A stretch of DNA of 64,000 nucleotides. Origin: Candidatus Bathyarchaeota archaeon. Lineage in GTDB: Archaea; Thermoproteota; Bathyarchaeia; Bathyarchaeales; Bathycorpusculaceae. A program made the position numbers and the translations under genes. The notes beneath the pieces were generated by a model. It ran no database searches. It was not told where the DNA came from and worked only from the letters and a program-made list of their open reading frames with translations. The first letter of the stretch is position 1. Every line of letters starts with the position of its first letter. This document shows, in pieces, positions 2,386-60,635 of this stretch. The stretch is taken from assembly GCA_963775895.1 (NCBI GenBank), contig CAVZKL010000018.1, positions 67,768 to 131,767 of the forward strand, written 5' to 3'.

Positions 2386-2621
2386 ATCAGACTGCACACG
2401 CGCATGTTCGCGCAACGTGAGTTTGACACCACGTAGAATTGTGAATGGGCTAGGATGTGCCCGTGTTTTGACGACGATTGAAATGTGCTAATATGCCTAC
2501 TGTCTCTCATGTCGTACACGAGCGCGCGCGACGATAATGGCTCAGCGTGATCCTCTAATTTTCTTGCCAGAAAACTTTTTCTTTGTGAAACGAGTGGACA
2601 TCGAACAGGAATGGTGATAGT

Positions 2622-2987
2622 TTGAACCGAGCTAGAGATCAACTGGACTCAGGCTATCCTGAAGTCATAACGTCTCTACCCGAAGCAGACATTCAGTTCA
2701 GAGGCATCAGAGCATGGATCTTGCAGGGCGAGAAAACTCAACTCGTCTTCTTTGAAATGGAGTCTTCTGCAGCCGTACCCGAGCACACACATGGATACCC
2801 TCAATGGGGAATGGTGATTGACGGGGAAATGGACTTGATTATTGACGGCAAATCCATGATATGCACGAAAGGCACCGAGTATCTAATTCCGGCCGGAGCC
2901 AAACACTATGCCAGATTCCACAAAAAGACTAGGGTTGTCGACTTTTTCTCCGAGAAAAGTAGGTACCGACAGAAACTGCTAGGATAA
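2622..2987 (+). CDS. Cupin-domain protein
   Basis: VPEHTH...QWGMVIDG...IPAGAKH cupin motifs. Confidence 0.8.
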   Translation: MNRARDQLDSGYPEVITSLPEADIQFRGIRAWILQGEKTQLVFFEMESSAAVPEHTHGYPQWGMVIDGEMDLIIDGKSMICTKGTEYLIPAGAKHYARFHKKTRVVDFFSEKSRYRQKLLG

Positions 2988-3138
2988 CCGTAAAAAGCCT
3001 TGCCTTTCTATTTAGTGTCTTACGGAGACTTTTCCCCCAAGCCTCTCCACCCTGCTCTTCAGTTTCTCAATCGCCTGTCTGAGCTCCGAGTTCACTAGCG
3101 CGCGCGAAGTCATGCTTAACCTTATTGTCGCGCTAGCT

Positions 3139-3393
3139 TCACGCTCGCGCTCCAACCCAATTGCCGAGCTTTGCAAGTTCGACCGATAAGTAACCGGGAC
3201 CGGGGGCGATTTCAAGCACGTTACTGCTGGGTGCGGTATTGTCCTTTACAAGCTCAGCCCAGGATTTGTATTGTGCAATGCTGTTCTTCTGAATTCTATT
3301 ATACTGCCAAGCGACAATGCCTTCCATCGCTATGCCTTTGTAGGCTTTTCTTTTGTTAGACGAAGGAGAATTTGTTGTCATGCTATCTCTCAC
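3139..3393 (-). pseudogene. Truncated class I SAM methyltransferase (N-terminal part only)
   Basis: VLEIAPGPGYLSVELAK motif I followed almost at once by a stop; rest of the domain absent. Confidence 0.7.
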
Positions 3394-3587
3394 TCTTTAT
3401 CTGTTCCCCTGTATTTCTTCAGGGGTTGCTTAAGATTGATGAGGTTTTGCTCAAGATCTTGGTCTTCATATTTATTCCAAGAAAGGAATGATAACTGTTG
3501 CCTAACGCGCGCTTGCAATTAATCAGGCTCAAAAAGTAGTCCTTCGAACAATGGCGATCGATTTTAACCTTAATGCATTGCCAGTAC

Positions 3588-3624
3588 CACTAATAAATCT
3601 AATGTCACACTTTCCCTTCTAATG
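3588..3624. repeat. 37-bp dispersed direct repeat, copy 1
   Basis: CACTAATAAATCTAATGTCACACTTTCCCTTCTAATG; 33/37 identical to 5590-5626. Confidence 0.8.
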
Positions 3625-3635
3625 TCACACTCTTG

Positions 3636-3950
3636 CTATGTGCCCAGAACAGTTTTTGAATTATTTGCCCATCTTTTCAGATATAGTACACCCATTATCA
3701 ATGAGGCAGCAAAAACTACCGATCCTAGCATTGAAAGGCGAAAGATCGATTGGAAATATTCAGGGTTGACTTGTTGCTCGCCACGGGAGTATGCTAACCA
3801 CACAGCCAATCCGATGAGACTCAAGATCAGACCAGTTGTCAACAGAACAAGGAGAAGCAAATGCCGCCTCTTGATTAGATTATTGGTTCGCTGTAACTTT
3901 TCCGCAACAACAAAAGTCAGTCTGCCAAAGAGTTTTATTAGTTGACCCAA
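3636..3950 (-). CDS. Small membrane protein (2 TM)
   Basis: Two long hydrophobic stretches; no family recognised. Confidence 0.5.
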   Translation of the reverse strand: MGQLIKLFGRLTFVVAEKLQRTNNLIKRRHLLLLVLLTTGLILSLIGLAVWLAYSRGEQQVNPEYFQSIFRLSMLGSVVFAASLIMGVLYLKRWANNSKTVLGT

Positions 3951-4115
3951 TATGCGTTTTCAGAAAAGCATTACGCATCATCTTTTCCACTCATCGTCAC
4001 ACTCTCAGCGAACTCGGAAAACCAAAAAGCGTACGCACTAAAATGGGGAGAGATAGTTGCTGATACAAAAAATATGGAATAGCCTCAGCGGAACCAAGGG
4101 CTCAGACCAGAGCGC

Positions 4116-4637
4116 CTATAGAATTATCGGTCTGAACTGTCTTCTTTTGCCAACTCGGTATCCCAGGTAACCACCTATCACATAGGAGAGTAAAATATAT
4201 GGTATGAAAACAAAAGGGTCTTCTGCCAACGCTGTGAGGAGGAGGACACGGTTTAAGAGAAAGGTTATTGCAGCGTATATGACGAAACCGAAGACGCCGG
4301 CTCCGAGGGCTGTCCAATACGTTTGCCAGAATTTGAGACTGGCGTGCGCCCACGCAATTCGGTAGACCCGAAAAACTGCATAAGTCAAGATTGGGGCTAG
4401 TAAAGTGTATAGTAACGCACCCTCCAATGTAGCATAGCCTGTCAGTTTATTGAAGTAGTCTAGCCAAGTGAACAGAAGCAAAGCAACATAGAGAGATATT
4501 GCCAACCACTTCATGCGGTTGCTTGGAACCATTTCCTTCTGAATACGCACGGACGCTCTCACAATGTAACGTCCAGTCCGCTTTATTGGCCTCGGACAAT
4601 AATACCTGAGTTTTTCACGCACTCCCACGTTCTTCAC
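4116..4637 (-). CDS. Membrane hypothetical protein (~4 TM)
   Basis: Hydrophobic segments from MKWLAISLY onward; real start may be internal. Confidence 0.55.
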   Translation of the reverse strand: MKNVGVREKLRYYCPRPIKRTGRYIVRASVRIQKEMVPSNRMKWLAISLYVALLLFTWLDYFNKLTGYATLEGALLYTLLAPILTYAVFRVYRIAWAHASLKFWQTYWTALGAGVFGFVIYAAITFLLNRVLLLTALAEDPFVFIPYILLSYVIGGYLGYRVGKRRQFRPIIL

Positions 4638-5131
4638 TCTCCAGTGATTTTTTGAAAGAGGAGTTCAGCAATCTTGCTGGGTGAGATTGATTCAAAATTG
4701 TCGGGAGACTGAATGTTTCGTTCTTCCATCTCGGCAAGCAGTGTTTTTCTGCAGTTCTCAAGATGATCGCAGTTCACGCAGTCGCCTTCGTGTCTGTACC
4801 AGACTTGAACTCCGTTTTTAGCAGAAAAAGTGATTATGGCCGGTGTCTTGAACTCGGAGCTGAACCCTGAAAGAATTCCAATTGCGGGATTTACCGCTTC
4901 CACTTTTATCTTGTTCAGTTTGGCCGTTTCCATGAGTGCTTGCGAGACCTTGCTATCGGCCACATCCGCAGCTTTGTGCACCGTTTGACGGCTTACCTCC
5001 AGTCTTCTGGCTATTCCCGCCTCGAACAAACCCTTCCTTTTCAGGTCCCAGATCTTCAATTGCTTGGAAGTCAGGTAACCATCGCTTAGAGCCACGATTC
5101 TCCCTGTAAGTATTTGAATGCTGACAACCAC
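4634..5131 (-). CDS. HTH DNA-binding protein with Cys cluster
   Basis: LTSKQLKIW...EAGIARRLEVSRQTVHK helix-turn-helix; CVNCDHLENC. Confidence 0.75.
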   Translation of the reverse strand: MVVSIQILTGRIVALSDGYLTSKQLKIWDLKRKGLFEAGIARRLEVSRQTVHKAADVADSKVSQALMETAKLNKIKVEAVNPAIGILSGFSSEFKTPAIITFSAKNGVQVWYRHEGDCVNCDHLENCRKTLLAEMEERNIQSPDNFESISPSKIAELLFQKITGE

Positions 5132-5138
5132 TTAAATC

Positions 5139-5441
5139 TTGTGCTCGCCCAGCGCGCGCACAAAGTACTTAAAGTTGAGAAACGACCCTAGAATTGATGG
5201 GTGTAGACTTGTGAAATATGTGTCTGACCCAGTTTCACGTAGAAAAATCAGTATCGGACTTTGGATACTGACAGTTACAATATTGGTAACTGTTTTGGTT
5301 ATTACTGTTTGGAGCCACATCTTTAGACCAGATCTATTTGGATTCATGTTGGTTGCAGACCCTGTTTTGTCCGTCATTGCCTTTTGCCTAATTTTGCTCA
5401 GCCTGTCGTTAAATCGCTGGAAGCCGTTACTTAGAAAGTGA
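5139..5441 (+). CDS. Small membrane protein (2 TM)
   Basis: Two hydrophobic helices; start probably later (~5210-5220). Confidence 0.4.
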   Translation: MCSPSARTKYLKLRNDPRIDGCRLVKYVSDPVSRRKISIGLWILTVTILVTVLVITVWSHIFRPDLFGFMLVADPVLSVIAFCLILLSLSLNRWKPLLRK

Positions 5442-5589
5442 AGCAATTTCAATAGTAACATCACATTTCTTTTTTTCTTGACGGATAAGCGCGTGCTAAT
5501 CCGGCGCGACCCAGGTCTAAAATCCCGATTGTGCCTTGAAACATGAAGTACGTTCAGTTCATAATTCGATAATGTTCCCAAAAATTTAG

Positions 5590-5626
5590 CACTAGTAAAT
5601 CTAATGTTCCACTTTCCTTTCTAATG
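5590..5626. repeat. 37-bp dispersed direct repeat, copy 2
   Basis: CACTAGTAAATCTAATGTTCCACTTTCCTTTCTAATG; overlaps perfect inverted repeat AATGTTCCA-N13-TGGAACATT (5603-5633). Confidence 0.8.
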
Positions 5627-5669
5627 GAACATTCCTGTAAACCATACCCTGAAAAAGGAAGCACGCGCG

Positions 5670-6107
5670 CTAGTATTCCAGAACTCCGATTTGCATCGTC
5701 ATCTTCCACTCCTTCCCGACCTTCGCGTAGACTTTGCAGACGCGCCCCTTCCATCGCATCCCCCTGCCTCTGCTGTCGCGCCAGAGCGTGTTGATGTCTA
5801 CGACCGCGAAAGCCCCGTCTCTTTCCTCCGACACGACTATTTTCTTTATCCTCCTTTCGTTATGGATGAGGATGTGGGTGTCAAATAGATTCTGCCATCC
5901 CCTCTTCCAGCGGTCATGGTTGAACCTACCCTGCGTAAGTACCCAGTCCATCGGGTCGTGTGACTTAGTGGTCTTCGGCCAAGGCCAAACCATATCGGGG
6001 TGGAAGACTGTCAGCAGCAGCTCAGCGTCCCTAGTGTCCCATGCGCGCGTCTCTCTGTTGACGATTTCCTCTATCTCCTTCTTCGCCGTCTTGAGTTTGA
6101 GCGCCAT
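5670..6107 (-). CDS. NTF2/SnoaL-like protein
   Basis: EIEEIVNRETRAWDTRDAELLLTVFHPD...WKMTMQIG pattern; ATG at 6107 preferred over the overlapping extension. Confidence 0.7.
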   Translation of the reverse strand: MALKLKTAKKEIEEIVNRETRAWDTRDAELLLTVFHPDMVWPWPKTTKSHDPMDWVLTQGRFNHDRWKRGWQNLFDTHILIHNERRIKKIVVSEERDGAFAVVDINTLWRDSRGRGMRWKGRVCKVYAKVGKEWKMTMQIGVLEY

Positions 6108-6151
6108 GGTTCCGTTTCCGCTCGACATAAGATGCGCGCGCAATTTTCTGG

Positions 6152-6484
6152 CTATTTTCGCTCTAGCTTGAAGATCACTGGTCTTAACCCGTCTGGGCAA
6201 CACGCTACTGCAACTCCAGGTTCGTCATACCACTCAGAACAGTTGCCACCGAACCTGAGCGTCATAATCATCGGGAAGATTGTGTCCCAAGCGTAAGGGC
6301 AAAACCCGTTTGGCGTGCTATCATCAACTTGGAATACCTGTCCTTCTTTGAAGATGGGACATGGACCACTATACTTTGCCTTGATTGGAGGATCTTTGAA
6401 TACCTCTTTTGTATCAAACAGTTTGAGCACTGTAATCTTTATGCAATTTGCTTCCTTCTTCAAACAAACACCCCATATGCTCAC
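6152..6484 (-). CDS. TIGR04076-family protein
   Basis: CPIFKEGQ...GFCPYAW...ACCPDGLRPVIFKLER signature. Confidence 0.8.
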   Translation of the reverse strand: MSIWGVCLKKEANCIKITVLKLFDTKEVFKDPPIKAKYSGPCPIFKEGQVFQVDDSTPNGFCPYAWDTIFPMIMTLRFGGNCSEWYDEPGVAVACCPDGLRPVIFKLERK

Positions 6485-6612
6485 AGTTGTTCTAGCAATA
6501 CTATTAAAGACTACATCAGGGCGCGCGATTGTTGAATTGCGGCCTAACCTAATTAAACTTTAAAAGCAACAGCTTATTCTGTAGTTATCGACCAAAAACT
6601 GCGAGGATCAGA

Positions 6613-6954
6613 ATGAAAACCGAACGAAAACGATTCAGTTACGGTGTGGGAGCTGTTGCGGTCTTGGCGATTTCCCTAGGCGTAGCCCTAATCTTCTACG
6701 GTTTAGGTCTGATCGCTTTCAACTTCCTGAACCTTCTAGGATGGATTTTCGGTCCCCTAGGAGTCTACACCGTCGTCTATTCGTTCATCACTAAAAACCA
6801 GTCTACGTACTACTTGGTGTGGGGCACAATAATGGTTGCAGTAGCCATCATCGGAGGCTTCTATAACGTCGTCCCCTGGTACCTCGTCTTGGGAATACTG
6901 GTGATAGTGCTCGCAGTGATAGGCGTTATCGCATACATGGAGGGTAAAAATTGA
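6613..6954 (+). CDS. 4-TM membrane protein
   Basis: Four hydrophobic helices; first gene of a putative operon with the SPFH gene. Confidence 0.7.
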   Translation: MKTERKRFSYGVGAVAVLAISLGVALIFYGLGLIAFNFLNLLGWIFGPLGVYTVVYSFITKNQSTYYLVWGTIMVAVAIIGGFYNVVPWYLVLGILVIVLAVIGVIAYMEGKN

Positions 6955-7487
6955 GTGGAAAGGACTATCTTGGAAAAGTGAAGGGCGAACGAAGTCTTCT
7001 AGAACGAATAATGGGCTACATTCCCGGATATCATGGATACAAAGAAAAAGAGTTGAGGCGTGAAAGTGATCGCCTCGTCAGAATGGAAGCCGTCAACAGA
7101 CTCAAGTCTGCGAAAAGTACGATGAGACGTGCTTTTGCAAACCCCACGATGGTTCAGAAACTGAACGGTGAAGATGCCTACAGGTATGACTCGCTCAACT
7201 CCCGCTTGGACAGAGTCACTCAAAGGGTTGACAGGGCAGTCGCAGGTTATGCAGGTATGTTTGACGCGGTGAAGGTCAAAGAGGACAAGCTTGACGTAGT
7301 GCTTCAAAGCGACGTGAACATGATCGAGAAGGCTGATGGAATAAAAACTGACTGCGAAAAACTCGCCAAAATGCAGCCCGGAAACGATGATTGGAGCACA
7401 GCGATGGATGCGTTGCTTTCCAAGGTCGAAGAGTACGATTCATTAATCGATTCTCGAACGGAGGCTCTAAGAGGGCTGGGGCCATAA
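6951..7487 (+). CDS. Helical/coiled-coil hypothetical protein
   Basis: IPGYHGYKEKELRRESD motif; start overlaps upstream stop. Confidence 0.7.
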   Translation: MSGKDYLGKVKGERSLLERIMGYIPGYHGYKEKELRRESDRLVRMEAVNRLKSAKSTMRRAFANPTMVQKLNGEDAYRYDSLNSRLDRVTQRVDRAVAGYAGMFDAVKVKEDKLDVVLQSDVNMIEKADGIKTDCEKLAKMQPGNDDWSTAMDALLSKVEEYDSLIDSRTEALRGLGP

Positions 7488-7522
7488 TCCCCACCCGCTA
7501 CCGCACAAGGAGGTGAAAGCGA

Positions 7523-8579
7523 ATGCCAAAAGTTATCGAATGGGTTGGAGCAAAAGACAGCGACATGGTCTGGAAATACCCCAACGAGGAAATCGCTTGG
7601 GGAGACAACCTCATAGTTCACGAGTACGAAGCAGCAGTGTTCTTCAGGGACGGAAAAGCCTACGACGTATTCCGAGCAGGACGCCACGTGCTGACAACAG
7701 CCAACCTGCCGTTGCTAACCAAGATACTTACAAAGATCACCGGTTTCGACAGAAACCCGTTCACGTGCACCATATTCTTTGTCTCGCTGAAACAGTTCCA
7801 AGGAAAATTCGGCGCTCAAGGACAGACCAAAGAACTTGCACCTCTGAAGTTCTTCGGAGGATTCTGGTTCAGAGTCGAGGAACCAAACTTGTTTGTCAAC
7901 GAAGTGGTCGGCGGACAAGGAGCCTACACAACAGATGCGCTACAGGATTTCCTCAGAGGCTTCTTTAACGAACGATTGATCGACACTCTGAGTCAATACT
8001 CGCTTTCGGACGTTTACGGCAAACTGGATGATACGAGTCTTCTTTCAAAGAACATGCTTTTCGATGCTTTGCACAGGATAGGACTCGAACTGATCGATCT
8101 CAAGTTCGAGGGAATCGACACCACGCCTGAATGGAGAGACAGACTATTCTACATTAAGACCGGAGTAGGCGCAGCCGAAGTGCTCAGGATGGAAACGGTT
8201 CAAAAATCAACCGAGAGTCTTTCGAAGAGTACGGGAGGCGCAGCGATCGCGGCTGGAACGGTTCTCATTCCACCCTTGTTCCAAGGCCAGCCAGCAGGGA
8301 CTCAGGTAACGATGGTAGTGTGTCCCAAGTGCGGTTATCAGAACCCACAGACATCGAAGTTCTGCAACAACTGCGGCGCACCGATGCAAGGTCAAGCAGG
8401 CTGCACAGCCAGCGGGCACGGTCAACTGTCCCAAATGTGGAACTGCGAATCCTACCAGCGCGAAGTTCTGCGTCAACTGTGGAACTCCGATGCAAGCTAC
8501 CGTGAAGTGTGCGAAGTGCGGAACTGAAGCACCTGTCGGGACCAAATTCTGTCCCAACTGCGGAGCCAAACTGAAGTAG
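7523..8579 (+). CDS. SPFH (band-7) domain protein with C-terminal double zinc ribbons; frameshift ~8400
   Basis: WKYP...LIVHEYEAAVFFRDGK; CPKCG/FCNNCG repeats continue in another frame (CPKCG...FCVNCG...CAKCG...FCPNCG) to TAG 8579; GGAGG RBS. Confidence 0.8.
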
Positions 8580-8686
8580 TCAACTTCCCTTTTTCTTCAT
8601 TTTTCTCTCTTTTTCATACTTGCGCAATTTTCTCTGTAACGTTTTTATTTCCATGTTGCGAATGCTAATGGAGAGCACGGTTTCAG

Positions 8687-10294
8687 ATGAGTGAAAAAAT
8701 CATCGGCCACGGCACGTGGTACGACAAGATGGCCGCGAAGATAATCGCCAGGGAAAAGAAGCTAGGAAGGAGCTTGGATCCGGTCAGAACCGAAATGGGT
8801 ATAGCTGCTTCGGGTCTTCCTCACATCGGCAACCTGAGCGACGCCGTCAGATCCTTTGCGGTTGCTCTTGCGCTTCGGGAGCAAAACGTCAATTCTGAGT
8901 TGATCGCTTTCAGCGACGACAAGGATGGGTTGAGAAAGGTTCCAGCAGGCATGCCCGATGAATTGAAAGAACATCTGGGACGACCCGTGACCGACATTCC
9001 AGACTTCTGCGGCTGCCACGCAAGCTACGGTGAGCACATGTCCATCCTTCTGCGCGAAGCACTCGACAAGTGCGGTCTCGATTACACGTTCATGTCTGCG
9101 ACGGAGGTCTACAAAAAGGGATCGTTCAACGAAGAGATCAAGAAGATACTACTGAACGCGAAGAGAGTTGGGGAAATAGTCAAAGAAGAGATAGGACAAG
9201 AGAAGTTTCTAGAAGCTCTGCCCTACTTTGCTGTCTGTGAAAAATGTGGGCGCATATACACTACTAAAGCCTACGAGTTCTTGCCAAGGGAAAACAGGAT
9301 CCTTTACTCTTGTGAAGGAATGGAGGTCAAAGGAAAATGGTTGGAAGGCTGTGGCCACAAGGGCGAAGTGGATTACAGAAAAGGGATGGGCAAACTCAGC
9401 TGGAAGGGCGAATTTGCCGTTCGATGGAGAGCCTTGGACATCCGGTTTGAAGCCTTCGGAAAAGACGTTGCAGACTCGGTGCGTGTGAATGACCGAATCT
9501 GCAGGGAGATACTGGGTTGGGAGCCCCCCGTTCACGCGCAGTATGAAATGTTTTTGGCTCAGGGCGGCGGGAAAATCGCGAAGTCAGCCGGTGGCGTGTT
9601 GACTCCGCAGACGTGGTTCAAATACGGGTCTCCGCAGTCGCTCATGCTATTGCTGCTGAAACGGTTCGTTGGCACTCGCAAAATAGATGTCACTGACATA
9701 CCAGCCTACATGGATGAACTGGATGGACTCGAGGATGTGTACTTCGGAAAGAAACCGGCAAAGGACGAGCGCGAGCTGGCAAAACTCAAAGGCCTTTACG
9801 CGTACTGCTTCGCACTGCACCTTCCAAAATCTCCAGGCATCCACGTACCGTACAATTTGATGACGTTCTTGGTGAAGGTCGCTCCTAAGGGCAGTGAAGA
9901 GGAATACGTCGGTGAGAAGCTTCAAGGCTACGGAGTTTTGCAGAAAGGTCAGAAGGTCGATGATCGTCTGAGGGAACGGATAAAATACGCTTCGAACTGG
10001 ATCAAGGATTTTGAGGAGATAAGGGAAGCACGGGTTAGCCTGAGCGAGGACGAGCGAGCTGCGATTGCCCAACTCGTTGAGGTGTTACAGACTGAAGAGG
10101 AAGCCGAGAAGATTCAAAACGCCGTTTACAACATTGCCAAGGAATGCGGGATTCAACCTTCATCTTTTTTCAGAATAGTCTACTCAATTCTACTGGGCGT
10201 GCCTCAAGGTCCAAGACTCGGCCCATACATCCTCGCGATGGGAAGACACAACGTCATAGCAGCCCTCGATCGGGCTTCGAGAGAACAAGACTGA
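8687..10294 (+). CDS. lysS: Lysyl-tRNA synthetase, class I
   Basis: SGLPHIGN (HIGH), DDKDGLRKVP, KIAKS (KMSKS-like), GPRLGPYI. Confidence 0.95.
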   Translation: MSEKIIGHGTWYDKMAAKIIAREKKLGRSLDPVRTEMGIAASGLPHIGNLSDAVRSFAVALALREQNVNSELIAFSDDKDGLRKVPAGMPDELKEHLGRPVTDIPDFCGCHASYGEHMSILLREALDKCGLDYTFMSATEVYKKGSFNEEIKKILLNAKRVGEIVKEEIGQEKFLEALPYFAVCEKCGRIYTTKAYEFLPRENRILYSCEGMEVKGKWLEGCGHKGEVDYRKGMGKLSWKGEFAVRWRALDIRFEAFGKDVADSVRVNDRICREILGWEPPVHAQYEMFLAQGGGKIAKSAGGVLTPQTWFKYGSPQSLMLLLLKRFVGTRKIDVTDIPAYMDELDGLEDVYFGKKPAKDERELAKLKGLYAYCFALHLPKSPGIHVPYNLMTFLVKVAPKGSEEEYVGEKLQGYGVLQKGQKVDDRLRERIKYASNWIKDFEEIREARVSLSEDERAAIAQLVEVLQTEEEAEKIQNAVYNIAKECGIQPSSFFRIVYSILLGVPQGPRLGPYILAMGRHNVIAALDRASREQD

Positions 10295-10382
10295 ACCATT
10301 GAGAATGTACATGTTTCACAGTCGCGCGCGTTCTGGCGAGGGGGTCTGGTTGACGGTTAGGCGGATTGCGTTCAGAGACGTT

Positions 10383-11997: not shown

Positions 11998-12144
11998 TTG
12001 ATGATTTCCCGAGTTATGTAGTAGTCTTTTCTCTCATAAGCCTTGTTCGGGCATACACGTCGTCACGAGCCCGCGCGCTAGAATGAGTGGAGCCACTTCT
12101 GGATGTATAGAAGGATTTATACGCAGAAAAACTATTCCAGCTAA

Positions 12145-12399: not shown

Positions 12400-12448
12400 C
12401 TCCTTGTACGCAGACTGGAAAATACAGTGACTGTAGGGCGCCTGCTTA

Positions 12449-13230
12449 TTATGACTTGGTTCCTCTGCAAAGGATTGCCCCTGTGCCAAATCTCAAACCA
12501 ACTGCTTTGATTTGTCTCACCATTTTGTCGTGAACAAGACGGACTTCGTTTCTCTCTGCCCCTCCATCTACAACAAGCTTCCAGAGCGAACGCTCGCCAA
12601 ACAGGTTTTTCGTCGTCCATTCAAACATCGAAACATCGGTCACTGTTGGCGGCTCCCTCACCATGACCTCTACGTTTCCCAATCCAGCCCTTTGAAATAG
12701 ACGTCTTCATATTATCTTCATTGAAAGGCACGTCGACGTATAGTTAGTAAAAGGCCCTTTTGATTTGAATAGGAATGCCTAGAAGTCCTCCAGGCTCTGC
12801 GACCACGACCCTTCCACCATGTTTTGCCACGCGCACCATTTCTCTCATCGCTTTTAATCTACGATTGTCGATCGATGCAATCAAGGACTTACAGCATACG
12901 ACATCGGCAAAATCATCTTCAACTGGAATACTGTAGACATCTCCAAATTTGAATTCAAGCGTTTGATACTGACTCTTTCTTCGCAGTCCTCCGTCTTGCT
13001 TGCCGGATAGCAGACTTTGAAATATCTAGGCCTATGACTTTTCCACTTTCCCCAACTTTTTCTGCTAGTTTAAACGCGAGGAACCCTGCCCCTGTTCCCA
13101 CATCAACTATCGTTTCCCCTGTCTTTGGTCCAATAAACTGCACTATACTATCAAGCAGTTGTTTGCTATGGTCTGGGAACTTCGGTACATTTTCTCAGGG
13201 ATTTTGTATGCAGATTCGGTCCAAGACATT
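12449..13230 (-). pseudogene. Class I SAM methyltransferase (UbiE/ArsM-like), multiply frameshifted
   Basis: IVDVGTGAG, KVIGLDIS, GDVYSIPVEDDFADVV, REMVRVAKHGG spread over several frames; ends approximate. Confidence 0.7.
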
Positions 13231-13417
13231 TAACTCCCTCTTCGAAAACTTGTTGAGCAAGCTTTTAAAAGTTCATCTGAAAGAAGTGACTTTCAATGCC
13301 TTCGCAGGCGCATCTTGAAGTGATTCATGAACCAGAAACGCTAAACCTCATTTCGGATGAAACGAGAAGAAACGGTGCGCGCTTTCGATTCACTGCGGTT
13401 TCGAACCTAAACCGTGC

Positions 13418-26051: not shown

Positions 26052-26119
26052 TGCGCGCGCGAAGAATGTTTCGATTCCGATAGACGGATTTCACGAATGA
26101 GGTTGGTTCTGTCTGGTAT

Positions 26120-26854: not shown

Positions 26855-26930
26855 AATTATTCCACTTTTCGTGTATTTCATATTATTCATACTGTTTAAA
26901 AGGCGTTGTGCATGATTCGTACATGGCGCG

Positions 26931-26996
26931 CGCAAAAAAGGAATCGAAGAAACCTACGACTATCTGAACAGGCAACCAGGTAAACAACGGGCTTAG
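26931..26996 (+). pseudogene. Orphan C-terminal remnant, NAD-dependent epimerase-like tail
   Basis: Hand translation RKKGIEETYDYLNRQPGKQRA* begins within the (GC)4 run. Confidence 0.4.
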
Positions 26997-28521: not shown

Positions 28522-28721
28522 TTCAACATGATATTATACCGCATAAAAGTTTTGGCTCAATGCGCGCGCTGAGTTGAGATTTCAACTGCGTTGCTTAGTG
28601 GTGGCCACAGGTCTTTGTTTTCCTTTTTTGAAGGCAATTGGTTTTGCGGTTAAGTTGAGCCCGCGAGTGAGCTGGAAGGCAAAATCTTATCCATCCGTGC
28701 GTTCAGGTTGAATGGGGGTTT

Positions 28722-29168: not shown

Positions 29169-29239
29169 CGTTGTTTTGGCGGGCGCGCGCGAACTAAAGC
29201 GGACAGGTGCGAGTTAGAGTCTTATAATCCTCGGTTTTA

Positions 29240-30277: not shown

Positions 30278-30278
30278 C

Positions 30279-32922: not shown

Positions 32923-32962
32923 CTTGCGTAGTGGTAACTAGGCTTTTTACGGGTGGTGATTA

Positions 32963-33109: not shown

Positions 33110-33158
33110 TCGCGCGCGTGAAGTGTGGTTCTCTGACTAGGTATTCTTATAAGCAGAA

Positions 33159-33548: not shown

Positions 33549-33553
33549 TATCG

Positions 33554-34354: not shown

Positions 34355-34609
34355 CGATATCCTAGCGAAATTCTATTGTCTTCTATTATCAATTCAATTC
34401 TTTAAGACTTCGCTACAAACGATATTATGATAACTAGACCTCTCTGCGCATGCGCTCAAGTTTTCGGGTTACTCCAAAACTCGGTGGAGTTTTGAGAATG
34501 GTTGACTGGTTCTTGAAGCGTTTTAGTAATGTTTTCTGTTTGTTTTGTTTTTTGAAGTGTTTTTTTAGCGCGCGCTATTCTTATAAGCAATACAGATGAA
34601 GATTGATGT

Positions 34610-35101: not shown

Positions 35102-35119
35102 TGCACGCGCGCTTCGACT

Positions 35120-36960: not shown

Positions 36961-36984
36961 CTAGTGCGCGCGCCATAATTGTAA

Positions 36985-37413: not shown

Positions 37414-37667
37414 GTTCGTTTCTTTTCTGTTTCTAGCAATATCCTGAGTGAGCGCTAAAGAACTTTTTTATACGAAATTCGATATTGCAAGAAAACGCGC
37501 GCTGCATGATTTCCGCAAAACCACCTAGAGAACAACATTATGCAACTGGCACGCGCAGAGCGGGCTTGACCCTGATGTTGGTCAGAAAGCCTCAGGCCTG
37601 CCGACCCTCTCTTTCTGAAGAAAGACCAAGAAAACTCGCCGTGCACGATATTATTTAATAGGATGTT

Positions 37668-51692: not shown

Positions 51693-52629
51693 CCTTTCCG
51701 ATCCTCGTAATCAAAGCACTTACCAATATCGGCAATATGACGGAAGCGTCCCCCTCAATCATAGTTTTCTTCGCCCTTTCACTGATCTTTCCCCACGAGA
51801 CCGCTTCTCGCGGTCGAGCACCTGAAAGACTGCCGTCCCATTCATCCGCAGTGCTTACGTACAGAGCATAGTCCAATCCGTCCTTAAACTGGTTCCACCA
51901 CAAGGTGTGATGCTTCGATATTCCCCCACCGACCAACAAGGCTCCCGTTTTCTTTGCATTGAAAACTATTTCACTGAGTTCCCCAGAATCCTTGAGCAGG
52001 TTGAGTCTGAAATCGTGGTCCTGTGAGAAAAGCCAAATCTGGTACCCGACAGCCCCATCAGTTATGCCTGGCACGTAAACGGGCACGTTGTTCTTTGCAG
52101 CCCAGTAGAGGATCGAGGTTTCATTGCACAAACGTTTTCCGATTTCACGACACAGTTGACTCGACGAAACCTCTCTGACTCCTTCTTTCCAAAGCTCTTG
52201 AAGCAGTGACTGCATCTTCTTTTCGATTATCAGCCCGTAACTTTCGTTCGGAACCAAGACATTTCCCAAACGGTTGATCTTTTGACTTCGAAGTTTCGCG
52301 TCGCTCATAAGAAATGAGCCCTTGTAGTAGTCTTTCCAACTCCTCGCCAGGTCATGATCAATTGTGCCGCAGGTCGTTACAACAACGTCAACGAGTCTTC
52401 TTTTCACAAGCTCCTTTAATGCGCCTCTCGTTCCCGTTGCGACGAGGTTCCCAGTGAAGGAAATGAACTTCAGGCATTTCTTGTCTTCAACCATTCTCTC
52501 GAAGATCTTCAAGCCCACAGCAAATTTTCCTGCTGTAAACCCCCAAGCTTTGTCCATTTGGGAAACAAGCTCGTCAACCGTCATTTTTTCAGAGAACTCG
52601 TAATCTTCCACTCTTTCTTTCAGGGTCAA
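51676..52629 (-). CDS. dys: Deoxyhypusine synthase
   Basis: FTGNLVATG, GGGISKHH, DGSLSGARPREAVSWGK. Confidence 0.9.
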   Translation of the reverse strand: MTLKERVEDYEFSEKMTVDELVSQMDKAWGFTAGKFAVGLKIFERMVEDKKCLKFISFTGNLVATGTRGALKELVKRRLVDVVVTTCGTIDHDLARSWKDYYKGSFLMSDAKLRSQKINRLGNVLVPNESYGLIIEKKMQSLLQELWKEGVREVSSSQLCREIGKRLCNETSILYWAAKNNVPVYVPGITDGAVGYQIWLFSQDHDFRLNLLKDSGELSEIVFNAKKTGALLVGGGISKHHTLWWNQFKDGLDYALYVSTADEWDGSLSGARPREAVSWGKISERAKKTMIEGDASVILPILVSALITRIGKARTRR

Positions 52630-56300: not shown

Positions 56301-58176
56301 CTATTTGCGCAGTTCTGTCAGTGCCTTGTCAACGTCCGCCAACCCCAGCTTCTTGAGGGTCGCCGATTTCGGTATCCCGTTCTCGTCCCAGCCCGCTGCC
56401 TCATAATATTCCTGCACGCTCTTCTTGACCTTGGACCTGTCAGCAGCTTTCCCTTTGTAGGGGCCCGAAGGCAAAGGTTCGTAGAACCTTCTAGGGTTGT
56501 CGTCGTCAACTTTCGGGTTCCACGTCAAATCGGGTCCTCCCAGAAGCAGCAATGCTCTTTGTATTTGCAGGGTCTTTAATCCGCCGCCTTTTGCCCACTC
56601 TTCCCGCGTCAATTCCAGACCTGTAATGGCATTATAAAAGTCGAACTTCAGGTTCCTAGGCAAACCAAAACCGCCACTGAAATTGCACAAAACCGCTGAA
56701 TCGTTGAATATTTCCCACACCTCGCTATCAGGACCATCTAGGGGTAAGTCGGTCATCGAAGTGTGATCGCCGCATTGAACCGAACATGCGTAGGTAATGT
56801 CATTCGAAAAGTCCTTGCCGCTGCGAATGCCATGAGCACCGATCCCGATGCCTTTGTTCTGAACGGCATACTGCAGTACATCTCTGCGTTTCATTTTACC
56901 TATTTTCAAGGCTGCTCGATACGTGCCTTCTGCCAGCAAATCACCTATGCCTTGTCTCAGCGCAATTTTTTTTGCCAGACTCGCAAAGGCTTCAGTATCT
57001 CCCCATTTCAGTTCTATGCCGTCTAGATCTTCTTTGGACAGAATGCCTCTCTGATATAGTTCGGCGGCAAAACCCATGACATTTCCTGTTTGGATGCCGC
57101 ATAAACCTAAATCGTCAATTAGTGAAGCCATGAACACATTTTCTTCTGGAGTGAAGATTCCTAGGTTTGGGCCAAGATACGCCTGCATTTCATAATCCGG
57201 GTTGTCAGTTATCGCTCCTTTATACTTGCCAGATTTGACGAACGCGATCTTCATGCAGTTTGTGGGACAGCCGAAGTCGCTCCAAGACTGTTTTACCCAA
57301 ACTCTGTTCTCGAACTGATCAACGCCGTATCCTTTCTCTTCATGCCATTCTTCCTGCCAGTTCCTGATTGGTTCAGAACTAGTCTTTGCGGCGAAATTAT
57401 AGCCGCCACCACCTGTTCCCCATCGTCTCCACAACACGTTTTCATAGGCGCTCTTGTTTACGGCGTTTATCAATCGTCTCACTCTTGCAAGGTCGGAAAC
57501 TTCGGGCAACGGTCCAGTGCCTTTAACGGTGATGGCCTTGAGCTTCTTAGAGCCCATGACCGCTCCGTAACCACCGTAACCTGCCGCATGCGTCCATTTG
57601 GCCATAACCGCTGCGGTTCGAACTCTGTTCTCGCCTGCGGGACCGATGTACACTTTCGCGGGTTCCTTCCAAGCACCATAACGTGGATAGCGTTCATCTA
57701 ACAGTCGCCTACATTCTATGTTAAGCAGCTTGTTCGTTTCTTTGCCATCTTTGCTCCAGATCTTGCCTGCCTCTCGTATCTCAACGTCCGAGTCTTTGAT
57801 GAAGATGTAAACGGGCTTTTCAGGCTTCGCCCAAAATGATTATCCCGTCATAGCCAGCGCAGCGCAACTCAACTCCGAACTCTCCGCCTACAGTCGAACC
57901 CACAACGCCGTTACTCTGCGGGGACTTGCCTGAGACGCAGATTCTGCCGCCGGGGAAAAACCCCGTGAGTGGGCCAGGCAGAAACAATAGAATGTTTTCA
58001 GGGCCAAGCGGATCGAGTTGTTTCCATTTGTTGATCATTCTTTCGCAAAGGATCTTCGCAGCAAGTGCTCTGCCGCCCACGTAATCCTTCAACCATTTCT
58101 CGCCAAGAGTAATGTCTTTGGAAGTGTTGTCTGAGAGGTCAACCTCCAAGAACTTTCCCGCATATCCTAATATCAA
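56301..58176 (-). CDS. Tungsten aldehyde:ferredoxin oxidoreductase family; frameshift ~57825
   Basis: YVGGRALA, GKSPQS, GYDGIII, IGPAGEN, GAVMGSKKLKA, YYEAAGWDENGIP. Confidence 0.9.
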
Positions 58177-58697
58177 ATGAACTCTTCCCCCTTCTCTCCG
58201 TAAAGCTTGACCGCTAGATTCTTGGCCTGCTCCTCAGGCTTGCGCGCGTACAATCTGTAGGGGTGTTCTTGTCTCGTGACGGTTTTCAGAACGTTCCATT
58301 CACCTTCCTGGCAGACCTTCACGCACTGTGGATTTCCATTACAAAGATCACAGATGAGGATTCTCTTGTCGACTGGATGCATATGCGGAATCTTGCCAGG
58401 GCAAGCTTCTATGCACTTTCCGCAGCCAGTGCACTTCTCGTTGTTCACTAAAACAGCACTTGTCTTCTTGCTGACAGACAAGGCCTTGAAGGGGCATGCC
58501 TCAACACACGGATAGTCTTCGCATTGGGCACAGAGATGCGGGAAGTCTGTGCCAGGAACCAGCATGAAGACTCGGACTCTCGATGCTTCTGGCCATATTC
58601 TTTTCTCATGGTAGAGCGAACAGGTGATCTCGCACTTACGGCATCCGCTGCATTTCGAGAGTTCCCTCGCTATCCAGATAGGCTCATTCTTTGCCAA
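58173..58697 (-). CDS. 4Fe-4S electron-transfer subunit of the AOR
   Basis: Four Cys-cluster motifs; overlaps the AOR start. Confidence 0.9.
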   Translation of the reverse strand: MAKNEPIWIARELSKCSGCRKCEITCSLYHEKRIWPEASRVRVFMLVPGTDFPHLCAQCEDYPCVEACPFKALSVSKKTSAVLVNNEKCTGCGKCIEACPGKIPHMHPVDKRILICDLCNGNPQCVKVCQEGEWNVLKTVTRQEHPYRLYARKPEEQAKNLAVKLYGEKGEEFI

Positions 58698-58947
58698 AAC
58701 GACTTGCCTTCTACAAAAGCCTGAGGAATTGTCTTTGAGTCTGCCTCGATTTAAACGTGACGATTTCTAAAATCTCGAACTCGGTTAGCTGCGGGCGATG
58801 AGCGAGTCCAAAAATCGAGCAGGAATTGTGAGGTTTAGTGCAAACTGCATTAAGTATCAGTTCCTCTGAACTGTTTTAACCATCCCCATCTACGAATCTG
58901 AAGGCAAACCTAAAGAATTCTCGACGCAATCTGGTTTATGATGTCAA

Positions 58948-59147
58948 ATGTTCAAAATCACTGAGCGAACACGTCGAGTCGCTAGAAAAGTGATGGACAA
59001 CGCCTTGCCAATCAAACAAGACGAAGTGACTGTCTTCTATGCCGGAATAGAGAATCTGGATCTTGCTTATGCATTTGCTGCTGAATGTGAGTCTCGCGCG
59101 CGCTTGACAGAAGACTTGTTCTGAAAAACGGAGAATTCATCCTGTGA
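58948..59147 (+). pseudogene. M29-like aminopeptidase with large internal deletion
   Basis: N-terminus MFKITERTRRVARKVMDNALPIKQDE...AFAAECESR joined at CGCGCGCGC to C-terminus LDRRLVLKNGEFIL*. Confidence 0.65.
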
Positions 59148-59203
59148 ATTTTGCTCAAAGGTGTCAGACTTGGAGCAATTGATGAATTCTTGACTATGAA
59201 TAA

Positions 59204-59229
59204 TGGCGGGCCCGAGGGTATTTGTACCT
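59204..59229 (-). repeat. Degenerate tRNA 3' fragment (possible old att site)
   Basis: AGGTACAAATACCCTCGGGCCCGCCA resembles T-loop + acceptor + CCA. Confidence 0.45.
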
Positions 59230-59425
59230 AATTAGGTGCAAGTACCTTTATCACGCACGACCAATGAGAATCAGACCACGCGTCCGCCTCGTTCAAAAGT
59301 CAGAATTTGCATGCCCTTCGCGCGCGCTATCATTCAACCCAGCACTAATAGCACGGGCGTTTCCATGTAGACGATTACATTGAGCAACGTTACATCCGGC
59401 AGTGGTCCTACTGCGCGTTCTAGCA

Positions 59426-60469
59426 TCATTCATTTGGCTTCGTTAATGAGTCGTCTCTGATAAGGGTTCCAACTGTGCAGTGAGGTCCGCCTCCACCCTT
59501 TGCGAATTCACCCATCTCAACTTCAATAACGTCCACACCCTTCTTTCTCAGCTCTGCAGCTGTGTGATCACAGTGTTGGGGAATAATGACTTTGCCTGGC
59601 TCCAAAGCAAGGACATTAGGTGCACAAAGGTGTAATTCTTCGGTTGTACATTCTACCAACTCTATTTTCTTGCTTTCAAGATATCGAATCGTGTCATAGT
59701 CTATAAGTCCGGGATACGCAACGGCTAGGTTATAGTCAGCCATTCCGAATACCATGTCAAGATGGAAAGTACCAGCACCATCACCTACTTGCCACTTCCT
59801 GGCGCCAGCGAGACCTCCTACAGCAGTAGGTAAATGGGCGATGTGTACTTCCTCCACTCCAACTCTCTGTAGAACTGAAATCACCTGATTAATTCCCTCT
59901 ATATTTGCCTGACTGGATGTAGCAATAACACAACTCCTATTGTTAATCCATGCCAAGTCAGCGCTTTCGTAAATCCCCCTTCCGATCACTTGGAGAAGTA
60001 TAGGGATCCCAATTTCTGCAAATCTCTTTGCAAAGATACTTCCCTTTCCAAAGCTCAGGGGAGAAGCATATCGTTGAACAATATAACCGCCGTTGATCAG
60101 ACGAGCACTTTCACAGTAACAGAGGTCACGATACGGAAAACCATACGGCCCTATTAAACGCGACCCTGGGTTAAGCCAAAGAATCTCAATGTCTTGACCT
60201 TTAATCGTCTTGACAAGTTCGTCATGCTCCTCTTGCATCCTTTCCAGGTCAAGCGGGCCCTCAGGTAGCCCCAAGAGCTGAAGCATGACAGGGTCTTTCT
60301 TTGCCTCCTCCGGCATTGCCTCAGGGCCTGGCCTATGCATCATTACGGTTCTGATCTTTCCAAGGCCTTGTTCTCCCCATTTTCTTTCCCAAACACGTAT
60401 TTCGTCGAGAAAGTCCGGAAACACCTTTTCGGTTTGTCCCGCAAGTTCCTTACATGTGCTTTTGTACAT
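59426..60469 (-). CDS. Amidinotransferase/arginine deiminase/DDAH-family protein
   Basis: VMMHRPG, EEHDELV, FHLDMV, NVLALEPG, KGGGGPHC. Confidence 0.88.
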   Translation of the reverse strand: MYKSTCKELAGQTEKVFPDFLDEIRVWERKWGEQGLGKIRTVMMHRPGPEAMPEEAKKDPVMLQLLGLPEGPLDLERMQEEHDELVKTIKGQDIEILWLNPGSRLIGPYGFPYRDLCYCESARLINGGYIVQRYASPLSFGKGSIFAKRFAEIGIPILLQVIGRGIYESADLAWINNRSCVIATSSQANIEGINQVISVLQRVGVEEVHIAHLPTAVGGLAGARKWQVGDGAGTFHLDMVFGMADYNLAVAYPGLIDYDTIRYLESKKIELVECTTEELHLCAPNVLALEPGKVIIPQHCDHTAAELRKKGVDVIEVEMGEFAKGGGGPHCTVGTLIRDDSLTKPNE

Positions 60470-60635
60470 GTTCTCAGTCTCTGATCTGAAACGCTTTTCT
60501 TTATAAATTTAGCACGGGCACGAACGCAAGATAGTGGAAACCGTGGCGCGCGCGTGTCTTGACTGTCGCGCTTGGGGCTTGTGCTCAAATTCAACCCCTG
60601 CTGCTCAAAGTGCCGGCTTTCTGACAGGTGCTTTT

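Follow-up and report, generated by a model that had tools for sequence, protein, structure and literature searches.

Why is the intergenic DNA of an uncultured archaeon punctuated by short alternating CG runs? The window analysed here, a 64,000-nt stretch with a GC content of 48.0%, contains 37 alternating CG runs of at least 6 bp. All 15 runs of 8–9 bp (seven 9-mers and eight 8-mers) listed in the initial annotation were found at the starts given there, as were its 15 runs of 6–7 bp (those in Table 1 together with 17379, 18236, 20294, 30599, 42498 and 61321); seven further shorter runs, at 6043, 23973, 25190, 27578, 54444, 56098 and 58242, were absent from that list. Dinucleotide-preserving shuffles of the window predicted 0.73 copies of GCGCGCGC and 0.71 of CGCGCGCG, whereas 13 (a number reached in 0 of 100 shuffles) and 9 were observed. 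These expectations show that the earlier rough estimate of about one 8-mer per 64 kb was right, and the enrichment survives composition correction both in the window and, against an order-3 Markov background, in the genome.

The runs had been described as lying outside intact genes. With a crude gene caller, this holds for 13 of the 15 longer runs; the other two, 6134 and 26926, lie near the start of called ORFs whose true starts are uncertain (about 20 codons in and within the first codons, respectively). The housekeeping block at 45.6–58.7 kb is indeed free of runs of at least 8 bp, and the reported run beside a tRNA 3' end was located next to tRNA-Arg, which the sole integrase of the window overlaps. 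In addition, the genes of the 4.2-kb accessory block have their best matches in a complete single-contig genome of the same genus (G001) dispersed elsewhere in that genome.

Table 1. Alternating CG runs and associated segments of the window.
Feature	Position	Context
Accessory block, 4.2 kb	2386..6612	8 runs; separates two genes adjacent in same-genus G001
GCGCGCGCG run	2522..2530	first in accessory block; 137 nt past conserved gene ending at 2385
GCGCGCGCG run	3098..3106	110 nt past cupin gene stop; one end of run-to-run joint in a metagenome contig
CGCGCGC 7-mer	3506..3512	within 4.2-kb accessory block
GCGCGCGC run	5152..5159	20 nt upstream of minus-strand gene 4634-5131
CGCGCGC 7-mer	5664..5670	shares one base with TAG stop of minus-strand gene 5670-6203
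GCGCGCGC run	6134..6141	metagenome contig departs from window 6 nt beyond (loose end 6148)
GCGCGCG 7-mer	6521..6527	last in accessory block; 86 nt before conserved gene 6613; end of 3099->6521 joint
CGCGCGCG run	10323..10330	29 nt past LysRS stop, between convergent genes
CGCGCGC 7-mer	12072..12078	between divergent small genes
Variable segment, 971 bp	12406..13376	right edge abuts run 13377
GCGCGC 6-mer	13377..13382	right edge of 971-bp variable segment
GCGCGCGCG run	26053..26061	1 nt past TAG stop of ORF 25746-26051
GCGCGCGC run	26926..26933	5' edge of MazE-like ORF 26624-26935
GCGCGCGC run	28562..28569	between divergent glycosyl hydrolase 4 and glyoxalase genes
GCGCGCGCG run	29183..29191	15 nt past glyoxalase gene stop, ahead of CdhD gene fragment
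CGCGCGCG run	33111..33118	AT-skewed stretch by integrase; 40 nt before gene 33159
GCGCGCGC run	34568..34575	AT-skewed stretch by integrase
CGCGCGC 7-mer	35106..35112	8 nt from stop of minus-strand gene 35120-35779
GCGCGCGC run	36966..36973	6 nt past tRNA-Arg (36888-36960); adjoins integrase gene 35929-36939
CGCGCGC 7-mer	37496..37502	upstream of NUDIX gene
CGCGCGCGC run	59095..59103	730-nt gene-free gap by truncated/split genes
CGCGCGCGC run	59319..59327	730-nt gene-free gap, together with run 59095
GCGCGCGCG run	60546..60554	upstream of arginine-deiminase-like gene fragment
GCGCGCG 7-mer	61424..61430	downstream of truncated Ldh_2 gene
CGCGCGC 7-mer	61478..61484	downstream of truncated Ldh_2 gene

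Genome-wide counts supported the suggestion of a HIP1-like iterated palindrome. GCGCGCGC is the most frequent 8-mer of the source genome (G000), with 254 sites or 12.8 times the order-3 Markov expectation, and also of the complete genome G001, with 464 sites or 13.6 times. Run lengths peak at 8 with no simple decay (118 runs of 7 bp, 155 of 8, 79 of 9, 26 of 10 and 2 of 11), and conservation around the 8-mer is limited to A/T (TA) flanks, with none past about 12 bp. The sites are clustered, 32–35% of inter-site gaps being 1 kb or less vs. 12–16% under a Poisson model. Moreover, each of the 10 other genomes of the genus that were searched holds 29–464 motif matches, these genomes being related by kinship and not independent samples. 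High counts were also obtained in several other Bathyarchaeia lineages among 151 genomes of the class, as raw counts before GC correction. A literature search found no paper on this palindrome.

The location of the sites follows gene conservation. With a crude purpose-made ORF scorer, which assigned about 76% of the genome to coding sequence, 201 of 235 collapsed sites (about 86%) were fully intergenic, compared with a non-coding genome share of 24%. Over 60.8 kb of spacers between conserved adjacent ortholog pairs, G000 has 3 sites, and G001 has 6 over 50.6 kb; spacers without a conserved flanking gene have 92 sites over 110.8 kb in G000 and 195 over 217.6 kb in G001. The corresponding densities are 0.05–0.12 per kb with conserved neighbours and 0.56–0.90 per kb where the flanking genes are non-conserved. 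The restriction to accessory regions first seen in the window is thus a 5- to 17-fold difference in density, and the runs belong to the variable genome.

It had been proposed that the runs are a recombination footprint or a gene-cassette boundary, and that synteny breakpoints between close strains might coincide with them. This comparison was positive. When 400 kb of a genome about 93% identical to G001 (G008) was compared with G001, 10 of 24 sites were no more than 15 nt from the end of an alignment; of the others, 8 fell in the aligned part (336 kb) and 6 in the unaligned part (64 kb). The density was 0.024–0.036 per kb inside the 330–336 kb aligned vs. roughly 2 per kb at 15 nt or less from an alignment end, and 8–12 sites stand inside conserved aligned DNA of this 93%-identical pair. 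Of 141 alignment ends, 30 had a CG run of at least 6 bp no more than 20 nt away in one or both genomes. A run bordered 11 of the 51 collinear events (indels or replacements), so that most structural events (40 of 51) occurred without one. Duplicates within a genome showed the same association: the motif peaks at the duplicate boundary, the three central 10-nt bins collecting 51 hits in G001 (667 ends; about 0–6 per bin elsewhere) and 16 in G000 (151 ends; about 0–3 per bin elsewhere). In an unbiased 8-mer scan of these ends, GCGCGC-type words took each of the eight highest ranks in G001 and each of the ten ranks listed for G000. Of 44 cases at duplicate ends, 38 had the run in just one copy; simple run-run exchange therefore fails to explain most joints. 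In addition, 9 of 56 contig ends of G000 lie within 300 nt of a site (2.2 expected).

With a third genome (G002) as reference, four events were polarised: two insertions into an existing run, and two deletions whose joint carries a run. A 1,750-bp insertion in G001 carries two genes, has 6 bp of run sequence on one side and 8 bp on the other, and corresponds to an empty site with a single run in both G008 and G002. The insert encodes only regulator-like and zinc-finger-like proteins, with no mobility gene, and no recombinase was found in it (the sole inserted segment examined). A 170-nt module stands at both its ends, of which G001 has two full copies and one partial copy and G000 none. The second insertion (184 bp, in G008) interrupts a run that both G001 and G002 have in unbroken form. 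The run sequence duplicated by the two insertions differs (about 6 bp vs. about 2 bp), a difference that speaks against both a precise recombinase and a transposase with a fixed stagger. As for the deletions, a run alone remains in G008 where G001 and G002 have 1.1 kb in one case, and 601 and 120 bp in the other. The ancestral endpoints of both carry no full run, which leaves two possibilities: addition of run letters during joining, or intermediates that are absent from the genomes compared.

Strain-level variation was also found in metagenome contigs. Contigs of two metagenome runs have 33 nt including a CG run in place of the 971-bp variable segment, and a single contig, one side of which is 22 nt, connects runs 3098 and 6521 through 8 shared letters.

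Profile searches for a partner enzyme gave the following results. The methylase partner suggested in the initial annotation was not found with the C5 methylase profile (PF00145) in G000, G001 or the highest-count genomes. Across the genus there was no match in G000, G001 or six more of the 10 other genomes; across the class, matches occurred in 21 of 151 genomes, and genomes with more than about 110 motif matches gave no full-length one (G111, with 298, has a 21-bit fragment only). The N4/N6 methylase profile PF01555 gave one weak match in G000, of a kind found in every genus including motif-poor ones, and a search for Vsr gave a sub-threshold match only. The Y1 transposase profile (PF01797, RAYT) had no match in G000 and matched 23 of 151 class genomes, none from the family to which the high-count genomes G080, G089 and G100 belong. 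Ku was matched in 34 of the 151; whole Ku-bearing groups are motif-poor, and none was matched in the highest-count genomes (601, 373, 325 and 300 motif matches). As candidate partners, C5 methylase, Ku and RAYT each fail to track the motif across the class. As for a primase-polymerase partner, the genus has a complete Ku/LigD end-joining operon that includes the LigD Prim-Pol, but the domain likewise does not track the motif across the class.

The palindrome looks like a join point of the flexible genome of an uncultured archaeon (Bathyarchaeia). We consider it evenly balanced whether (TA)GCGCGCGC(TA) is a self-propagating break-and-rejoin site for gene cassettes in the flexible genome of this Bathyarchaeia genus. 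Under this proposal, an 8–12-bp, lineage-specific and highly iterated palindrome would serve as the preferred break-and-rejoin point, where DNA would enter, be lost, or be swapped alongside, probably through cleavage or strand exchange at the run itself. An insertion would split a run and leave whole or partial run sequence on either side; as run sequence is left on both sides, every insertion would add a run, and runs may thus multiply by duplication at insertion. Such an increment per insertion would explain the pile-up of runs between accessory genes, their arrays, and their near absence from conserved syntenic spacers. The Ku/LigD operon of the genus could perform the joining.

A stronger version, which we regard as doubtful, holds that the palindrome is the universal crossover site of an undescribed, integron-like, attC-free, enzyme-catalysed cassette exchange that has spread among several families of the class. 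If true, genes without a mobility gene of their own could be inserted, excised and shuffled at a minimal palindrome.

Alternatively, the runs may be a passive hotspot: a mutational or repair bias, as proposed for HIP1, would generate GCGCGCGC in unconstrained DNA, where it would merely offer the best microhomology for illegitimate recombination. Because such a bias acts on unconstrained DNA, long young accessory spacers would collect the word, and the conserved spacers are short (about 160 nt on average) and largely functional. One-mismatch neighbours of GCGCGCGC are enriched 2.2–2.9 times for transitions vs. about 1–2.2 times for transversions, as expected from gain or decay by point substitution. 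In four close relatives, moreover, the place of run 10323 just past the LysRS stop is taken by versions of a CG run altered by transitions. However, the searches returned no C5 methylase in G000, G001 or the highest-count genomes, only a weak N4/N6 match of a kind that every genus has, and only a sub-threshold Vsr match. Furthermore, a diffuse drive fails to predict the contrast in density between aligned DNA and alignment ends, and two insertions split a run that already existed. This explanation is unlikely.

It is quite unlikely that the runs are only fragile sites, at which alternating CG forms left-handed or slipped DNA or a topoisomerase cleavage site and repair rearranges the region, with no generating mechanism and no use. 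Alternating CG tracts provoke breaks and deletions in other systems, and the coincidence with breakpoints, the variably processed joints and the Ku/LigD operon are consistent with such behaviour, as is a length change of one CG unit at run 10323 (an extra CG in contigs of three of four metagenome runs). Yet a purely harmful site should be purged, whereas GCGCGCGC is the commonest 8-mer at 13 times expectation, and its length is sharply capped at 8–10, in contrast to tracts that grow by slippage. A search for a z-alpha domain in G000 gave none, although the same search was blank in control genomes too.

A functional signal of accessory genes, whether a 3'-end signal or a palindrome bound by a dimeric regulator, silencer or boundary factor, would move with its cassette, so that coincidence with junctions would reflect cassette boundaries. 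The runs are placed between the upstream stop and the downstream promoter: stops have 36 sites at a distance of 20 nt or less and starts 5, the last 40 nt ahead of starts are depleted of runs, and the density in convergent-gene spacers is twice that in other spacers. Moreover, runs sharing their G with a TAG stop form a peak (7 cases in G000 and 13 in G001). No association with a T-tract beside the runs was detected, which rules out an intrinsic terminator. The near-total absence of runs at conserved genes, the splitting of runs by insertions, their appearance at deletion joints and the lack of conservation past about 12 bp all count against a functional signal, which we consider very unlikely. 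Finally, although G000 is a metagenome-assembled genome of 28 contigs (88.8% complete, 3.5% contamination), an artefact of assembly or binning has virtually no probability, as the identical pattern appears in the complete genome G001 and all 10 other genus genomes searched, and contigs from four independent public metagenome studies cover the runs of the window.

The break-and-rejoin site proposed here can be compared with several known systems. Cyanobacterial HIP1 was first noticed at deletion borders. Like HIP1 (GCGATCGC) and the alternate HIPs, the present word is a GC-rich octameric palindrome that is lineage-specific, top-ranked far above compositional expectation in G000 and G001, and accompanied by enriched one-mismatch variants. 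As to the bias towards the first and last positions expected for variants of a HIP-type word, the enrichment here is 1.6–2.9 times at positions 1 and 8, and internally 2.2–2.6 times for transitions and 1.0–2.0 times for transversions. A link between HIP1 and DNA exchange has been proposed in published abstracts. A high HIP frequency is reported to accompany methyltransferases recognising the palindrome (PMC4390886); the main text of that paper contains neither "GCGCGC" nor "archaea". Unlike HIP, the present palindrome has no C5 methylase beside it in G000, G001 or the highest-count genomes, and its sites are mostly intergenic and nearly confined to variable DNA.

REP elements occupy duplication join points and attract insertions. 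As with REPs and BIMEs, the runs form hundreds of lineage-specific extragenic copies, mostly 3' of genes. According to published abstracts, REPs are 20–40-bp stem-loop palindromes that accompany a RAYT gene, whereas the unit here is 8–12 bp without a loop and no RAYT was found in G000. Transposon target-site duplications, which are of fixed length and go with terminal inverted repeats and a transposase acting in cis or in trans, also differ, in that the duplicated run sequence varies and the 1,750-bp insert lacks a transposase. Z-DNA-prone or other non-B fragile tracts share the alternating CG, the association with breakpoints and the length changes of one CG unit. Z-DNA-prone patterns are described as generally suppressed in the prokaryotic genomes surveyed in PMC4060949; in contrast, the present word is the most abundant 8-mer, with its length capped at 8–10.

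In integrons, attC sites are imperfect inverted repeats of 55–140 bp that are recombined by the IntI integrase, and the cassettes are mostly co-oriented. The site here is 8–12 bp with no extended repeat, genes face both ways, joints are imprecise and no dedicated integrase was identified. Nevertheless, as in integron cassette arrays, single accessory genes are spaced by a repeated palindromic site, and a new gene, in the examined case without a mobility gene, enters an existing site and leaves a site on each side.

A script scan of the window found 37 maximal alternating C/G runs of at least 6 nt, among them seven 9-mers and eight 8-mers. The 15 starts given by the initial annotation for runs of 8–9 bp were all exact, and the 15 6–7-mers that it had listed were all present, together with seven further ones that it had left out. 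The GC content of the window is 48.0%, and dinucleotide-preserving shuffles predicted 0.73 occurrences of GCGCGCGC and 0.71 of CGCGCGCG; the observed counts were 13 and 9, respectively, and neither was reached by any shuffle. The scan agreed with the annotation that runs of at least 8 nt are absent from 45.6–58.7 kb. As for its view that the 8–9-bp runs lie outside confidently intact genes, our crude gene calls place 13 of the 15 outside genes and two close to the starts of ORFs whose start codon is uncertain. In addition, the genes at 200–2385 and 6613–10294, which are adjacent in G001 (a complete same-genus genome of 2.35 Mb), are parted in the window by a 4.2-kb block with eight runs, and the best G001 matches of the genes in this block are scattered.

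Several further features of the window were recorded. Genes that look split or truncated adjoin runs at 56301–58173, 61619–63839, 29240–30274 and 59426–60466. Near runs, an aldehyde:ferredoxin oxidoreductase is spread over two ORFs, an FAD oxidoreductase consists of two overlapping ORFs, and fragments of CdhD and of an arginine-deiminase-like protein are present; ~90 profile positions are missing from the start of Ldh_2. The stretch at 29000–37000, in which runs are present, has a strongly negative AT skew and GC down to 0.41, and is closed by an integrase gene (35929–36939) overlapping a tRNA-Arg (36888–36960); it is probably an integrated element. Two deoxyhypusine synthase genes (50613–52626) are arranged tail to tail, their ends overlapping. 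Moreover, proteins encoded at 14528–15025 and 40473–43636 match emp24/GOLD, TRAP-beta and dockerin domains, which we take to be best known from eukaryotic secretion or cellulosomes.

The abundance of the word was then assessed across the source genome (G000; 1.77 Mb in 28 contigs), of which the window is G000:C18:67768-131767. GCGCGCGC is its commonest 8-mer, with 254 sites, 12.8 times the order-3 Markov expectation. CGCGCGCG has 152 sites, mostly as an overlap product of GCGCGCGC, and the GCGCGCGC core is missing from only 29 of 263 long runs. The decay of run length is not geometric (313 runs of 6 nt, 118 of 7, 155 of 8, 79 of 9, 26 of 10, two of 11 and one of 14), and other alternating dinucleotides fall off steadily with length. 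Words with one mismatch to GCGCGCGC are also enriched, transitions 2.2–2.9-fold and transversions about 1–2.2-fold. At the flanks, a preceding A and a following T are preferred (~57% of half-sites), and next to this TA is weakly preferred; there is no other preference, and no longer repeat was found around the core at the G000 sites. The site's strict length of 8–10 bp, together with its A/T (TA) flanks, suggests recognition by a protein. After the CG words, the 8-mers with the highest over-representation include TTAGGATC and TAGGATCC, words of an ~85-bp non-coding element (window 45668–45760) that has at least 27 copies in G000 at 86–98% identity. The other genus genomes searched also contain a 46-bp core of this element, and an Rfam search with the 85-bp repeat gave no match.

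Gene positions were taken from our own ORF scorer, which called only 76% of G000 coding. Of 235 collapsed sites, 201 were fully intergenic, 7 lay across a gene end and 27 were coding. Site density was highest in spacers between convergent genes (0.80 per kb; tandem, 0.41; divergent, 0.35); 36 sites were no more than 20 nt from a stop, as against 5 that were equally close to a start, and runs were depleted in the 40 nt upstream of starts. The commonest single arrangement was a run sharing its G with a TAG stop (7 in G000, 13 in G001). A terminator reading was rejected, as tracts of at least five T are not in excess beside runs oriented by the upstream gene.

The word is widespread in the genus. 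All 10 other genus genomes searched had 29–464 matches, compared with 0–14 in other genera of the family; in G001 it occupies 464 sites (13.6-fold). Most of 151 sampled Bathyarchaeia genomes had fewer than 20 matches, and several other families were high (601, 373, 325, 300, 298 and so on); in these raw counts, which carry no correction for GC, the motif-rich families had the ~2:1 excess over CGCGCGCG seen in G000. The LysRS loci closest to that of the window come from Bathyarchaeia of peat, soil and sediment.

Reciprocal best hits between G000 and G001 gave 1,062 orthologs (median amino-acid identity 75%), by which intergenic spacers were sorted (see table). In the coding DNA of conserved genes, density was 0.012 sites per kb, approximately the chance level. 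The runs thus belong to the variable genome. They are also clustered, with 32–35% of inter-site gaps no longer than 1 kb versus 12–16% expected. Three direct comparisons of G000 with G001 were of limited reach: only one orthologous spacer shared a site, too few for a test of conservation; homology in aligned cassette flanks ended at the coding region; and only 36 matches of at least 88% identity (14 kb in total) were available as recently exchanged DNA, again too few.

Density of sites by spacer class, and coordinates of features discussed in the text
Feature	Location	Sites per kb, G000	Sites per kb, G001	Remark
Spacer between two conserved genes that neighbor each other in both genomes		0.05 (3 in 60.8 kb)	0.12 (6 in 50.6 kb)	
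Spacer, both flanks conserved, distant in the other genome		0.25	0.70	
Spacer, one conserved flank		0.56	0.70	
Spacer, no conserved flank		0.83	0.90	
170-nt module	L242:1501-1670 and 3091-3257 (locus from G001)			Non-coding, direct repeat
Complete bacterial-type end-joining operon	G000:C22:28987-29526; L133:17178-19999 (locus from G001)			

The position of the motif relative to breaks in homology was profiled using within-genome duplicates (at least 150 bp and 80% identity), as the distance from alignment end to motif. The three central 10-nt bins held 51 motif hits in G001, against about 0–6 per bin elsewhere (667 ends), and 16 in G000, against about 0–3 (151 ends). An unbiased count of all 8-mers at duplicate ends returned GCGCGC-type words as the top eight in G001 and as all ten shown in G000. 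Among 652 duplicate ends of G001, 44 had the motif within 14 nt, 38 of them in one copy only and 6 in both. Clean insertion with target-site duplication was not supported: in only 1 of 326 duplicate pairs did one copy have a run at each end and its partner have none, and simple insertions could be resolved at only six one-copy ends, none with a run at the far junction.

Closer relatives gave the same picture. G008 and G002, two genomes of the genus, are ~93% identical to G001, spacers included, and 400 kb of contig G008:C1 was compared, of which 336 kb aligns to G001. The initial annotation had asked whether synteny breakpoints between close strains fall at runs, and the outcome here was positive: this part of G008 has 24 sites, of which 10 are no more than 15 nt from an alignment end, 8 are inside aligned DNA and 6 belong to the 64 kb of unaligned sequence. 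The corresponding numbers for the matching part of G001 were 10, 12 and 47. In one or both genomes, a CG run of at least 6 nt was present no farther than 20 nt from 30 of 141 alignment ends, and 11 of 51 collinear indel or replacement events had a run at the edge (40 had none). Furthermore, 9 of 56 contig ends of G000 lie within 300 nt of a site, where 2.2 are expected. Runs coincide with homology breakpoints.

The direction of change was set using G002 as the third genome. An insertion of 1,750 bp in G001 has 6 bp of run at one side and 8 bp at the other; at the empty spot, G008 and G002 have one uninterrupted run. The insert codes for a helix-turn-helix/MEDS-domain protein and a small zinc-finger-like protein, and no mobility gene was found in it; its build is modular, with a 170-nt module bounded by CG runs at both of its ends (~81% identity; see table). 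This module was rejected as a MITE, as G001 has only two full copies and one partial copy and G000 none. A 184-bp insertion in G008 interrupts a run that G001 and G002 have intact. Two deletions were also polarized to G008, which has four letters plus GCGCGCGC in place of about 1.1 kb in G001 and G002, and a 10-nt run-bearing joint in place of 601 bp in G001 and 120 bp in G002; the ancestral endpoints of both were without a full run. These events indicate that DNA enters runs, with run sequence then remaining on either side of it, and that deletions end in runs. A 13.4-kb 'insertion' of G001 that starts with a run was rejected as a mobile element because it holds housekeeping genes, which points to rearrangement or to loss from G008.

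Variation at runs was also seen among strains and close relatives. Part of window 1–10000 is covered by 20 DNA metagenome runs from nine studies and by none of RNA among those listed, and contigs of four of these were compared with window 1–20000. Contigs from three of the four have an extra CG in the run at 10323. In two, the 971 bp at 12406–13376, whose right edge abuts the run at 13377, are replaced by 33 nt with a CG run. One contig joins the run at 3098 to that at 6521 through 8 shared letters, a weak joint because its short side is only 22 nt, and several loose contig ends lie within 20 nt of runs, among 24 listed of 507. Close relatives have, at their LysRS locus, a segment of 1,076 bp with CG runs on both sides; in one genome its place is taken by 44 nt starting with a degenerate run.

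Collectively, these data show that a hyper-abundant palindrome lives in variable DNA and at its joints, takes insertions and stays at deletion joints. The simplest account is that the runs are a preferred site of breaking and rejoining. Such a site would be duplicated, wholly or partly, with every insertion of DNA, and would multiply solely where insertions are tolerated; the chemistry would be either that of a dedicated recombinase or cleavage with subsequent end joining. Break-and-join is favored over precise site-specific exchange because the duplicated run varies (about 6 versus about 2 bp), because many joints have a run in one copy only, and because the endpoints in the other copy are arbitrary. 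Passive drive of the HIP type, combined with use of the runs as microhomology, explains part of the data. So does a pure fragile site; topoisomerase II cleaves at alternating purine–pyrimidine tracts, and Z-DNA induces deletions. A regulatory site travelling with cassettes likewise explains part, but none of the three accounts for both the 13-fold excess and the sharp peak at junctions.

Enzymes that might track the motif were sought. The initial annotation had suggested a co-occurring methylase, and methylase drive was rejected for the two families searched, PF00145 and PF01555, whose distributions do not fit that of the motif. The C5 cytosine methylase (PF00145) had no match in G000, G001 or six more of the 10 other genus genomes. 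In the class it occurs in 21 of 151 genomes, including 6 of 7 from one motif-poor genus, and no full-length copy was found in those above about 110 matches; G111, a class genome with 298 matches, has only a 21-bit fragment. The N4/N6 methylase (PF01555) has one weak match in G000, with similar matches in motif-poor genera, and Vsr has only a 21.6-bit match, below the cut-off and with an in-frame stop. A z-alpha search gave no match, nor did it in control genomes. A RAYT-like transposase was also rejected, as the Y1 transposase (PF01797) is lacking in G000 and its presence in 23 of 151 class genomes is unrelated to the motif. Of 11 genus genomes, 8 have a Ku match, and the remaining three are 65–89% complete. 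In the G001 operon (see table), Ku is encoded alongside a primase-polymerase of the LigD type and a ligase that carries a fused 3'-phosphoesterase domain. An end-joining system also occurs in Methanocella. However, Ku/LigD end joining was rejected as the determinant of the motif: Ku is present in 34 of the 151 Bathyarchaeia genomes sampled and is not associated with motif count.

Bathyarchaeia belong to the archaea that are most abundant in sediments, peat and soils. To our knowledge, they have no genetically tractable member, and we know of no account of how they gain and lose genes. A short tag marking where the genome opens would give a direct handle on the turnover of their pan-genome, a practical means of marking genomic islands and the places where metagenome-assembled genomes break in assembly, and a concrete bait (a TAGCGCGCGCTA duplex) in the hunt for the enzyme. 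In the literature searched, no paper on the GCGCGCGC word in archaea was found. Integrons occur in Archaea, and the motif resembles integron arrays in layout and differs from them in site structure. It is like REPs in location, but has neither stem-loop nor RAYT. HIP1, which early reports are said to have placed at deletion borders, is alike in abundance and form. Patterns that promote Z-DNA tend to be suppressed across the prokaryotic genomes surveyed, according to PMC4060949. The Bathyarchaeia motif fails the methylase association that the abstract of PMC4390886 states for HIP; the main text of that paper mentions neither 'GCGCGC' nor 'archaea'. The motif would also be a second, independent hyper-abundant octameric palindrome, here without a methylase link, and the case bears on the long-standing question of what purpose HIP1-type words serve.
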